A DNA stretch of 27,064 bases from Candidatus Heimdallarchaeota archaeon. Its GTDB lineage: Archaea > Asgardarchaeota > Heimdallarchaeia > JABLTI01. This document shows positions 2,575-5,099 of this stretch, piece by piece; within the stretch, counting starts at the first letter, position 1; each line of letters starts with the position of its first letter. Made by a program: the position numbers and the translations under genes. The notes below the pieces were generated by a model that was given only the letters and a program-made list of their open reading frames with translations, did not search any database and had not been told where the DNA came from. The stretch is taken from positions 1-27,064 of the forward strand of contig JAHLVW010000102.1 of assembly GCA_019058275.1 (NCBI GenBank), written 5' to 3'.

Positions 2575-2661
2575 AAACAATATTCTTAATTATATAATAC
2601 TTTCAATTATCTCCATATTTAACCATTTTTAATCTCAATATTATTCATTGCTTGTAGGAAG

Positions 2662-3546
2662 TTGCATCGAGTGTTCAAACTCTATTACAAACACCTTTAC
2701 CCATCAATCATCGAATGGCAAGATGAACCATTTGCACCTTGGAGTTTCAAAGAACAAGTTTTATCGAGTGTTCTTCCTTTTTTTGAATCTACATTACTGA
2801 AAGAAGAATTCTCTTTGAAGAAAGAAATTGGTTGTGAAATCTTTATGGATTCAGGAGCATTCACAGCTGCTTCGATGGGATATGAATTGGATCCTTACGA
2901 AGTTGCTGAAATGCAGGCTCTTCTCAAAGCAGATTTAGTTGTACCAGTAGACAAAGTTGTTTTTAGAGAAGATTCTTCTAGAATCGTCAATCAAAAAATC
3001 GAAGATACAATTAGTAACACCAAAATATTGCTAGATTTGAAGCATAAAACAAGTCAAGTTATTGGTCCTCTACAAGGATTTACAAAGGAGATTTTAGAGC
3101 ACTCCTTTAATGAATTTAAGAAACTAGGAATACAAAGATTTGCTATTAGTGGTTTGGTATTTGAATCAGAAATTAAGAGAAATATGGAGAGAATTGCACT
3201 TGCCAGAGAAATAACAAAAGGTTATCCACTACATATATTTAGCAAATTTCTACATCCTGAATTATTGAAACTAATAATTGATGCTAATACTGATTCAGTT
3301 GATGGTTATGGTTATATTATAGCATCTCTAAAAGGCAATTACATTTTTAATGGGACATATGAGCCAATCTCAGATTTAACAGATGATGAGATAGACCTTT
3401 GCTCTTGTAGTATTTGTCAAGAAAATTCCTATGAAAATTTAAGCAGAGTTGATAAGGAATCTCAACATTTGCTGATAATGCACAATATTATAGCTCTAAA
3501 TAATCTAAAAGAAGAATTATTAAAACAGAAAAGTAATCAACACTGA
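2662..3546 (+). CDS. tRNA-guanine transglycosylase (TGT/DpdA)-fold protein, catalytic domain only
   Basis: IFMDSGAF, ADLVVPVD, IGPLQG, FAISGL, PLHIF, DSVDG, and a zinc site CSCSIC...HN. Confidence 0.85.
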   Translation: MHRVFKLYYKHLYPSIIEWQDEPFAPWSFKEQVLSSVLPFFESTLLKEEFSLKKEIGCEIFMDSGAFTAASMGYELDPYEVAEMQALLKADLVVPVDKVVFREDSSRIVNQKIEDTISNTKILLDLKHKTSQVIGPLQGFTKEILEHSFNEFKKLGIQRFAISGLVFESEIKRNMERIALAREITKGYPLHIFSKFLHPELLKLIIDANTDSVDGYGYIIASLKGNYIFNGTYEPISDLTDDEIDLCSCSICQENSYENLSRVDKESQHLLIMHNIIALNNLKEELLKQKSNQH

Positions 3547-3557
3547 TGTGAACTGTC

Positions 3558-4562
3558 ATGTTTCGATTAAACAAGATTATTGATGTAACATATAAGCGAA
3601 CATGCTTTTGTGGCAGACCTTTAATCAGAAATTTCTGCGAAAAACATGGAACTGATGTGAAGATATCTACGAGTTTAATACATGCACAATTTGATTTTAT
3701 AGAAGAAAGTAAAACAAAAGACGATAATCAAATAATTAATGTAAATTTAACTAAAAATCAATTTCTTAATTTATTTAAGAAAAAGAAATATGGAAATATT
3801 GAGAAAATAAGTGAGAATTATTCAATTAAAATCTCTTCATTTGGTGCTGATGAACCAATTCAAGGAATTCTTACAGATTTTTTTGATATGCTTGAATGTG
3901 ATTCTTTTTTTGGTATGAATAGAATCAAAGAGGTTCAAATGAAAAACTCGGGTGTTTTCTTTAATTTCTTGTTTTCATATGAACAAATAGAAGATAATTT
4001 GATTCACATCAATTTCGAGCTTGTAGTGTTGAGAAAACTAATTGACTACATACAATGGCGTTTAACTCATTTTCATGCAAAAAAAGAAAATATTGTTAAA
4101 TCTTTGAAAAATACAAGATCTAAGATTTACAATGAAGATGGTTGTTCATATAAAATTAAAGAAGTTATTTGGAGTACCAATAATCAGTTACCAGATAAAA
4201 CAGTAGTTGAAGAGCTGGAAAACCAGAATAACGAAATAGCATTCAAGGTAGGGGTTTTATATCAAAACCATGAAGACTTCTTTCTTTCAACAAAAGCAGA
4301 AAATCAATTGGTTTCTGCACTAACTAATTATTCTCAAAACTTCCTAAAATCATTGAAACAATATTTAACTCAAAAATCATTTTTAGCAGAAATTAATGTA
4401 TTAAAATTCGAAGATAGATTAAAGCTATTTGAAGAATTCATAGGAAAAGAAGTGGTAAATTCATCTGCATTTGTTGAGAAAATCAATAATCAGATTTTTG
4501 AATCATACTCAACTAATAGTGAGCGAATTAGCTCATTTCTCAAACAAGGTTCAGAAAAATAA
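3558..4562 (+). CDS. Hypothetical protein with N-terminal CxC-x8-CxxH zinc finger (RPA-like)
   Basis: 334-aa ORF 11 nt after the TGT-like stop. N-terminus reads RTCFCGRPLIRNFCEKHG. The remainder is not recognised. Confidence 0.7.
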   Translation: MFRLNKIIDVTYKRTCFCGRPLIRNFCEKHGTDVKISTSLIHAQFDFIEESKTKDDNQIINVNLTKNQFLNLFKKKKYGNIEKISENYSIKISSFGADEPIQGILTDFFDMLECDSFFGMNRIKEVQMKNSGVFFNFLFSYEQIEDNLIHINFELVVLRKLIDYIQWRLTHFHAKKENIVKSLKNTRSKIYNEDGCSYKIKEVIWSTNNQLPDKTVVEELENQNNEIAFKVGVLYQNHEDFFLSTKAENQLVSALTNYSQNFLKSLKQYLTQKSFLAEINVLKFEDRLKLFEEFIGKEVVNSSAFVEKINNQIFESYSTNSERISSFLKQGSEK

Positions 4563-4565
4563 GAT

Positions 4566-5099
4566 TTAGTTTTTTGCTTCTAAGAAAGAATTTAGATTAT
4601 CAATTACTTGTTTTGTGAAAGGTTGATCAAAAATAGCTATTTCTTTGAAAATAGATTTTACTAATTGTTCCGAGTATTGCAAAATGAATTTAGCTATTTC
4701 CTTTCTTTGAAAGTTTTCATCTAAGCTAAAAACTACATCAACTAGTGGAAGTATTCTTTCTTTGGATGGATTAATTTGCTTAATAACTAATTTATCTTGA
4801 TTAATATGTGTGAAAAATTCTTTTTTTAAAAGTTCAGATAATTCAGCTTTAGTTTCTTTGTTTAGCTTCTGTATTAGATTATCTAGTGCTTTTTTCCCAA
4901 TAAAATTAATTTCATAACTAATTCCAGCTTCTAGCATAATTTGCATTCTAAAGGGATCAGGCACAATATTCGCACGATGCATTGCTTTAATTGCTCGTTT
5001 TGTTTCCAGCTGCCTTTTCTTATAAAGAGCTATACGTTCTTCAAGGATATTAGCGATGTGAAGTAATTGTTCAAGATTATTATTATCTTTCAATACCAT
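4566..5099 (-). CDS. Hypothetical protein, mostly alpha-helical
   Basis: 177-aa ORF with ATG start, AGGATG upstream and normal composition; converges tightly on the previous gene. Confidence 0.7.
   Translation of the reverse strand: MVLKDNNNLEQLLHIANILEERIALYKKRQLETKRAIKAMHRANIVPDPFRMQIMLEAGISYEINFIGKKALDNLIQKLNKETKAELSELLKKEFFTHINQDKLVIKQINPSKERILPLVDVVFSLDENFQRKEIAKFILQYSEQLVKSIFKEIAIFDQPFTKQVIDNLNSFLEAKN

Follow-up and report, generated by a model that had tools for sequence, protein, structure and literature searches.

Asgard archaea are the closest prokaryotic relatives of eukaryotes. Modification of DNA with 7-deazaguanines is, to our knowledge, known from bacteria, which use the Dpd module, and from viruses. 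In the Dpd module, DpdC is a DUF328/PF03883 protein (PMC5699537, PMC12839542) that turns dPreQ0-DNA into dADG-DNA, that is, preQ0 into the amide ADG (PMC10164549). Here we describe TGTL-PART, a two-gene cassette in a 27,064-nt stretch of DNA from Candidatus Heimdallarchaeota archaeon (assembly GCA_019058275.1, contig JAHLVW010000102.1, the whole of which is called the window). The cassette encodes TGTL, a minimal protein of the TGT (tRNA-guanine transglycosylase) fold, and PART, a partner of a new family. The two genes occur together in a few Asgard archaea, directly side by side or across one gene, are lost together, and may encode a base-exchange enzyme that resembles Dpd in its logic.

The window is contig C97 of a metagenome-assembled genome (MAG) of 4.1 Mb, which is 93% complete and carries the NCBI label Heimdallarchaeota. 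Both open reading frames are open on the plus strand, as a preliminary description made from this DNA alone had reported (294 amino acids [aa], then 334 aa starting 11 nt downstream on the same strand). An alternative GTG start of TGTL at 2671 gives a 291-aa form, which is the version on record. Conservation is given below for alignments A6 (26 TGTL members) and A4 (seven PART members), and residues of TGTL were equated with those of the archaeal enzyme ArcTGT through its structure 1iq8. The features of the cassette are as follows.

2662..3546, + strand: TGTL, 294 aa, predicted minimal TGT-fold catalytic subunit (TTG start, open frame; Pfam TGT match)
2848..2856, + strand: D63-S64-G65, predicted first catalytic Asp motif, equivalent to ArcTGT D95-S-G (1iq8 alignment; invariant in A6)
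3301..3303, + strand: D214, equivalent to the ArcTGT nucleophile D249 (1iq8 alignment; invariant in A6)
3400..3483, + strand: predicted zinc site C247, C249, C252 and H274, equivalent to ArcTGT C279, C281, C284 and H307 (1iq8 alignment; all four invariant in A6)
3547..3557, + strand: 11-nt spacer between TGTL and PART (read from the sequence)
3558..4562, + strand: PART, 334 aa, ATG start, with a predicted zinc ribbon (~1-80), alpha/beta scaffold (~83-284) and helical tail
3603..3647, + strand: CxC-x8-C-x2-H zinc-ribbon motif of PART, C16, C18, C27 and H30 in TCFCGRPLIRNFCEKHG (invariant in A4)
2575..4565, no strand: two-gene cassette, present or missing as one block, from the TauE stop to the stop of the 177-aa gene (comparison with G081 and G090)

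TGTL and PART are consistently paired. Among 400 Asgard genomes, PART was matched in seven and TGTL in five; in one genome, G306, TGTL is cut off by the end of a contig. In each of the six intact loci, which come from three GTDB families, the two genes share a strand and lie within 1.4 kb; neither gene is present in about 393 of the 400 genomes. Within the genus of the host, 2 of 11 genomes carry the pair. Four more carriers, all of them Asgard (Heimdall CSMAG_1263, Borrarchaeum weybense and the MAGs TM1M.79 and TM2S.58), came from a pattern scan of 185,579 species genomes. About 38 TGTL homologues have 50-75% identity, every one from an Asgard-labelled source. Across all related loci, the genes of the system overlap or have spacers of 1-25 nt. 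In 10 of 10 metagenomic or MAG contigs, representing nine distinct loci, TGTL is followed by PART directly or after one gene of ~420 aa, and the outer neighbours differ. Conservation of the adjacency across Asgard genomes, which the preliminary description had named as a check, was found, directly or across one gene, in 6/6 intact loci and in all ten contigs examined.

The pair is also lost jointly. G081 and G090, which belong to the genus of the host, retain SfsA-p102-TauE-p177-p107-YdjM-fumarase-SdhB intact and lack exactly the two cassette genes, leaving gaps of 68 nt and 10 nt at the cassette site. The flanks of a cassette-bearing relative, L006, are as diverged as those of the cassette-free genomes, which implies that the cassette was ancestral at the site and was lost as a unit. 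The cassette thus appears to be old at this site, vertically inherited and lost as a block. TGTL and PART are both under purifying selection, with dN/dS values of 0.21 and 0.25 between G000 and G085. The strict co-occurrence in six intact loci of three families among the 400 genomes, together with the joint loss, upholds the earlier suggestion that the pair is a conserved, co-inherited functional unit. A viral or mobile origin was rejected: TGTL matched none of 50,697 phage records and nothing in IMG/VR contigs, PHROGs or BFVD. Genome G067 carries a decayed remnant of a long partner (G067:C1:2364809-2365432; L036) with TGA, TAG and TAA stops, in which a 161-aa open reading frame still spans the DUF6884 part. 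Neither TGTL nor a winged-helix gene lies near this remnant, which is an example of loss in progress.

TGTL matches the Pfam TGT family (PF01702) over residues 73-285 with 65 bits (cut-off 26.3). Its scores against narrower families are 65.1 bits for the ArcTGT equivalog TIGR00432 (TgtA; cut-off 350), 27.9 bits for DpdA NF041059 (cut-off 200), 44 bits for tgt_general (cut-off 47.6) and 35.5 bits for PADLOC DpdA (PDLC02807), the last over residues 50-216 only. By family cut-offs, TGTL is neither ArcTGT, ArcS nor DpdA. The host genome encodes a canonical ArcTGT elsewhere (500.5 bits, TIGR00432), as well as an ArcS (416 bits; DUF5591, TGT_C2 and PUA). Together with the score of 65.1 against 350 bits, this agrees with the expectation that the TGT-like protein would not group with canonical ArcTGT or ArcS. 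A third TGT-like protein of 374 aa (TIGR00432 124 bits, below the cut-off) adjoins a 194-aa DUF5591 protein (G000:C55:72375-74108; L008 1441-3174, minus strand), DUF5591 being the designation used here for the ArcS C1-type domain. These two look like a split ArcS-like or ArcTGT-like pair apart from the canonical ArcTGT and ArcS. Given ArcTGT, ArcS and the 374-aa protein in the same genome, TGTL is a fourth paralogue.

The best solved relative of TGTL is Pyrococcus ArcTGT (1iq8), aligned over residues 92-316. In ArcTGT we take D95 and D249 to be catalytic, D130, Q169, G196 and F229 to bind the base, and C279, C281, C284 and H307 to be the zinc ligands. TGTL D97, Q138, G164 and F193 align with the four base-binding residues. 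The catalytic, base-binding and zinc residues of TGTL are invariant or nearly so in A6 (n=26), and the protein looks catalytically intact. TGTL has no C1, C2 or PUA domains. Pfam gave no TGT_C2 or PUA match, and the protein stops 9 residues past the last matched position of the TGT profile. The N-terminal 60 aa are family-specific and contain the segment LYFKHLYPS..EW...PF.PW (A6). The idea of a TGT-fold protein without accessory domains yet with full catalytic machinery was therefore borne out by Pfam, the 1iq8 alignment and A6. Ser163 (3148-3150) and Ser194 (3241-3243) of TGTL replace residues that are Gly in 24-25 of the 26 family members (GG..LV and LHxFG motifs).

Searches of Pfam, NCBIfam, PHROG and PADLOC assigned PART to no family. 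When 1.84 billion representative proteins were searched exhaustively with a profile, the family came to 26 representatives only, and a word-based search returned four close homologues. The family has a short class of ~300-335 aa and a long class of ~450-497 aa. The N-terminal 310 aa had no Pfam match in 25 members at E values up to 10. Residues invariant in A4 are CxCG...FC..HG, Y164, W167, R168, S182, L183, R187, W205 and P212. The CXCX8CX2H motif quoted by the preliminary description is present in PART and invariant in 7/7 members of A4, short and long forms alike.

In other Asgard lineages, the cassette is part of a longer operon that encodes TGTL, a ~420-aa multi-winged-helix protein, and PART fused to a C-terminal DUF6884 domain. 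In Borrarchaeum, the three genes lie at L032 6159-9820. PART is homologous to the first ~310 aa of the 482-aa third gene of a Thor-labelled locus (tblastn E 5e-43), and tblastn gave the same N-terminal ~310-aa homology in the ~480-aa third gene of a Hod-labelled locus. In Thor-, Odin- and Hod-labelled loci, TGTL is followed by a ~420-aa gene, which was rejected as a homologue of PART (13-15% identity when forced; hhalign probability 0.1%). It is therefore treated as a separate winged-helix protein, and by tblastn PART corresponds to the third gene. The middle gene has weak TrmB, HTH_27 and IclR matches. The C-terminal part of the long forms matched DUF6884 in 11/11 cases and PF03883 (YaaA/DUF328) in 9/11. 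Long partners retain CxxxK and LSAxxG-type motifs (A4), and one has a weak PADLOC DpdC match (E 0.017).

The PART of the window ends after the helical tail, with no DUF6884 match and no CxxxK/LSAxxG domain. Short forms are essentially one clade in a quick tree (SH-aLRT 92), and so a single loss of the DUF6884 domain fits. This clade has at least 9 representatives, has diverged to ~40% identity and keeps the invariant motifs. The window cassette is apparently a reduced two-gene form of the longer system. On one JGI metagenome contig (L043:395-3875), TGTL, short at its N terminus, is fused in frame to the multi-winged-helix protein in a 666-aa product, which is followed by a 488-aa long partner. 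The fusion, seen in this single contig, is either natural or a one-base assembly error.

The long form provides the link to Dpd. In the description by the Pfam curators, DUF6884 is related to YaaA and has CxxxK and LSAxxG motifs, a cleft that binds DNA and a pocket predicted to flip bases; its member YfjM was recovered among DNA-lesion interactors and is predicted to flip a base (PMC11701544). By domain homology, the DUF6884 domain of long PART is placed in the DpdC superfamily, and this is the strongest clue to function. A full-length QueC (176 bits) is encoded by the host genome and presumably allows preQ0 to be made. The genome also encodes a standalone DUF6884 protein of 233 aa, whose neighbor is a 288-aa SLOG-cluster4 and winged-helix protein (G000:C55:112870-114851; L011). 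The standalone protein was rejected as a co-varying partner in trans, being found in 9/10 genomes of the genus with or without the cassette.

Structure prediction supports binding of TGTL to PART. The model of the complex reached an ipSAE of 0.79 (runs 0.76, 0.80, 0.79), and the best control gave 0.00. Modelling of the pair as a complex, a check suggested in the preliminary description, came out in favor of the pair. The ipSAE mark was reached by 58/80 solved complexes and 2/110 mismatched pairs, counts that hold only roughly for the present model because it was built from our own alignments. Runs share 83% or more of their contacts, and the pLDDT of the partner is 75 or higher. In the model, the invariant DPYEVAE helix (74-87) and the family-specific N terminus of TGTL pack against the PART zinc ribbon (17-35) and a patch of R168, S182 and R187. 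Family-invariant residues at the interface are D77, P78, E80 and E83 of TGTL and R168, S182 and R187 of PART. The modelled interface borders TGTL active-site residues 65-69 and 216-217. We know of no like complex, which makes it unlikely that the model merely reproduces a known structure.

The fold of PART was modelled with AlphaFold2 from a 25-sequence alignment (pLDDT 86, pTM 0.69), replacing an earlier low-depth model with pLDDT 66. Argonaute/PIWI chains make up nearly all of the top 50 Foldseek matches against the PDB (best E 4e-5, probability 1.0, TM by query ~0.3). In VIA-align, PART 87-283 superposes on the Argonaute N-terminal lobe (MpAgo 3-254, KmAgo 5-302, TtAgo 11-309 and hAgo2 43-405). 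An independent wide structure search ranked the ferredoxin-like C-domain of aIF2-alpha first (Z 9.8, 88 residues), with Argonautes at Z 8.4. A shape search of the atlas gave one archaeal 580-aa cluster at TM 0.49. The ESM Atlas feature search gave no lead, and PDB sequence searches with the PART and winged-helix profiles gave nothing usable. No Piwi-family gene is present in the window neighborhood or any related locus. The body of PART may be an alpha/beta scaffold resembling the Argonaute N/L1/L2 lobe; this borderline likeness is a lead and not a family assignment.

The preliminary description had also taken the partner for an RPA-like OB-fold protein. This part was not supported, and PART was rejected as RPA-like at the level of sequences and profiles. 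Neither Rep_fac-A_C nor any other OB family matched in 25 PART family members (Pfam, E up to 10), and hhalign of the PART profile against the host genome's own RPA zinc-finger domain gave a probability of 0.1%. The spacing of the zinc motif is CxC-x8-CxxH in PART versus CxxC-x14-CxxH in the host RPA. The fold search of 3558..4562, suggested as a way to find an OB or RPA match, returned the Argonaute/PIWI chains instead. Residues 83-284 are modelled as alpha/beta, with no OB barrel, and matched no OB protein. Residues 1-80, with three strands around a zinc knuckle, might still hold an OB-like element.

We favor a heterodimeric base-exchange module that is Dpd-like in logic, with DNA as the likelier substrate, and give this reading a probability of about 0.5. 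TGTL and PART would be two subunits of one enzyme. TGTL would act as a TIM-barrel transglycosylase, cutting out guanine and putting in a free base. If TGTL behaves like all TGTs characterised so far, this base would be a 7-deazaguanine, for example preQ0. PART would dock beside the active-site entrance through its zinc ribbon and conserved helical patch, and would supply the nucleic-acid-binding surface that TGTL does not have. In the three-gene form of most Asgard lineages, the DUF6884 part is akin to DpdC, and the system would follow the logic of DpdA plus DpdC. A TGT-fold enzyme accompanied by a domain of the DpdC superfamily makes DNA the likelier substrate. The lineage of the window would have kept only the exchange core, having lost the winged-helix gene and the DpdC-like domain; with this finishing domain gone, the inserted base would stay unprocessed. 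A partner-dependent exchange system is thus the part of the originally proposed two-component base-exchange or repair system that stands as the best reading, and the RPA-like, OB-fold nature of the partner is the part that found no support. In the paper library searched, no description of the PART family or of its pairing with a TGT enzyme was found.

A more specific proposal is put forward tentatively. Some Asgard archaea may mark their own chromosomal DNA with a 7-deazaguanine by means of a two-subunit transglycosylase, the non-catalytic subunit of which is a zinc-ribbon and Argonaute-N-lobe-like scaffold of a non-Pfam family. Made of other parts, the system would be to these archaea what DpdA/DpdB/DpdC is to bacteria, and the two genes of the window would be its minimal core.

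Several points weigh against the favored module. The substrate is read from context alone, and the window form has neither the winged-helix gene nor the DUF6884 domain, the two features that suggest DNA. Genes for a DpdB-like ATPase, a nuclease or preQ0 synthesis are linked to the pair neither in the window nor in any related locus, and the three carrier genomes with the long operon show only weak QueC-family matches. The profile score of TGTL is nearer to the tRNA-type ArcTGT (65 bits) than to DpdA (28-35 bits). Of the two serines, S163 is common to TGTL and its closest relative P0007, and S194 is found only in the window genome. The score of the complex is model confidence and not a measurement. 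The match of PART to the Argonaute lobe (VIA Z 8-10, 160-193 residues, root-mean-square deviation 5-6 A) is borderline, since Z 7-8 is a common best score for models with no true match.

The strongest alternative is an accessory enzyme of tRNA or rRNA modification. TGTL would then be a duplicate of the ArcTGT catalytic domain, with PART in place of C1/C2/PUA, and would insert preQ0 or guanine at a new RNA position; the long-form DUF6884 would complete the base on RNA in the way that ArcS completes archaeosine. Both the best family and the best solved relative of TGTL are ArcTGT, and what is known of archaeal TGT paralogues comes mainly from studies of tRNA. The split 374-aa and DUF5591 pair of the same genome indicates that modular TGT enzymes recur, and Argonaute N-lobe-like scaffolds touch RNA as well as DNA. 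However, a pair found in no more than 6-7 of 400 Asgard genomes, and in 2/11 of the genus, would be unusual for a translation-related function. The domains associated with the pair, the DUF328/DUF6884 superfamily that includes DpdC and the multi-winged-helix protein, are known or predicted to act on DNA (PMC10164549, PMC11701544), and no PUA, THUMP or other RNA-binding family was detected. We consider an RNA substrate unlikely on balance, though it deserves serious weight.

A DNA-acting effector of base excision or base swapping is a weaker candidate. Such an enzyme would remove 7-deazaguanines or damaged guanines in repair or anti-virus defence, with DUF6884 as a lesion or base-flipping sensor. 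The recovery of the DUF6884 protein YfjM among DNA-lesion interactors, with its predicted base flip, would suit this role (PMC11701544), as would the patchy, accessory-like distribution. Related loci have no cognate nuclease, so the system is not classical restriction-modification. Yet every TGT residue that binds the incoming free base is conserved, which fits exchange over simple excision. PADLOC defence matches are weak only, no defence islands can be recognised around the loci, and at one site the cassette has been inherited vertically. An excision or defence role is thus improbable.

That the adjacency has no functional meaning, the two being unrelated neighbors or PART decaying after loss of DUF6884, could draw on the truncation of the window PART relative to the long form and on the two Gly-to-Ser changes at conserved TGTL positions, but it is very improbable, already largely refuted by strict co-occurrence over three families and many contigs, joint loss and the PART dN/dS of 0.25, and it also sits poorly with a short-form clade of at least 9 representatives that keeps its invariant motifs at ~40% identity and with a complex model that passes its controls.

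The surroundings of the cassette are as follows.

307-1032, + strand: SfsA (Pfam), upstream of the pair
1372-2574, + strand: TauE/TSUP transporter (Pfam), directly upstream of the cassette
2590..2597, + strand: TATA-box-like TTATATAA in the 87-nt spacer 5' of TGTL, a possible promoter of the TGTL-PART pair (read from the sequence, by inference only)
4566-5099, - strand: p177, a 177-aa protein of no family, converging on PART with 3 nt between the stop codons

The linkage of SfsA and the TSUP transporter to the module, noted earlier, proved to be ordinary local synteny, as both are kept in same-genus genomes that have no pair. As module members, p177, SfsA, p102 and TauE were all rejected, since they persist where the pair is absent. 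In distant pair-bearing genomes, the neighbors are other than SfsA and TauE. The p177 gene is syntenic in cassette-free genomes also and has a dN/dS of 0.53, the highest of the block. Between G000 and G085, TauE (1372-2574) has a dS of 1.25 and 60% aa identity, and its neighbors have dS of 0.1-0.3 and identities of ~90% or more; this divergence at the cassette border suggests allele replacement by recombination. The class II fumarase of G090 (L030 8743-10131) is split into two open reading frames of 229 and 217 aa, and is a single 463-aa gene in the window.

If the favored reading is true, a chromosomal, vertically inherited Asgard system would extend 7-deazaguanine modification of DNA to a new domain. 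It would also represent a new way to target a TGT enzyme, in which a scaffold subunit of its own, as opposed to fused RNA-binding domains or a ParB-type ATPase, leads it to the substrate. A role that can be tested is thereby assigned to the unnamed PART family of 26 representatives. The pair spans less than 2 kb, the catalytic residues of TGTL are mapped, and E. coli makes preQ0.

The closest functional parallel is the Dpd module DpdA/DpdB/DpdC of Salmonella Montevideo (PMC10164549, PMC5699537). Both systems have a TGT-fold transglycosylase with no tRNA-binding domains, a need for a partner, which for TGTL is predicted, and a sporadic distribution, and the long-form TGTL system is linked, like DpdC, to a DUF328/YaaA-superfamily domain. 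TGTL differs in not being DpdA by sequence (28 versus 200 bits), and no ParB-like ATPase DpdB or dpdD-K restriction genes accompany it. The partner is instead a zinc ribbon plus alpha/beta scaffold of a new family, and the DpdC-like domain is of the DUF6884 type, fused to the partner and absent in the window. TGTL-PART is also archaeal, chromosomal and, it appears, vertically inherited. Small TGT-fold DpdA enzymes of phages and archaeal viruses act on DNA and have no RNA-binding domains, but TGTL has no matches in the viral collections searched and viral DpdA is not known to need a dedicated structural partner.

ArcTGT (TgtA; 1iq8) and ArcS are the closest relatives of TGTL by sequence. The catalytic Asp pair, the base-binding Asp, Gln, Gly and Phe, and the CxCxxC...H zinc site are identical. 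TGTL has 294 aa versus ~535-580 aa, no C1/C2/PUA, and a family-specific N-terminal segment that is ~30 residues shorter. The eukaryotic queuine TGT, QTRT1/QTRT2, offers a parallel as an obligate two-subunit transglycosylase with one catalytic and one non-catalytic subunit, but there both subunits belong to the TGT paralogues, and PART has no relation to TGT. The Argonaute N/L1/L2 lobe, found also as APAZ in the partners of short prokaryotic Argonautes, offers a further parallel, being a scaffold without catalytic activity that contacts nucleic acid and is paired with a catalytic subunit. PART and that lobe share no sequence similarity, no locus has a MID-PIWI protein, and PART has an N-terminal zinc ribbon that is absent from Argonautes.

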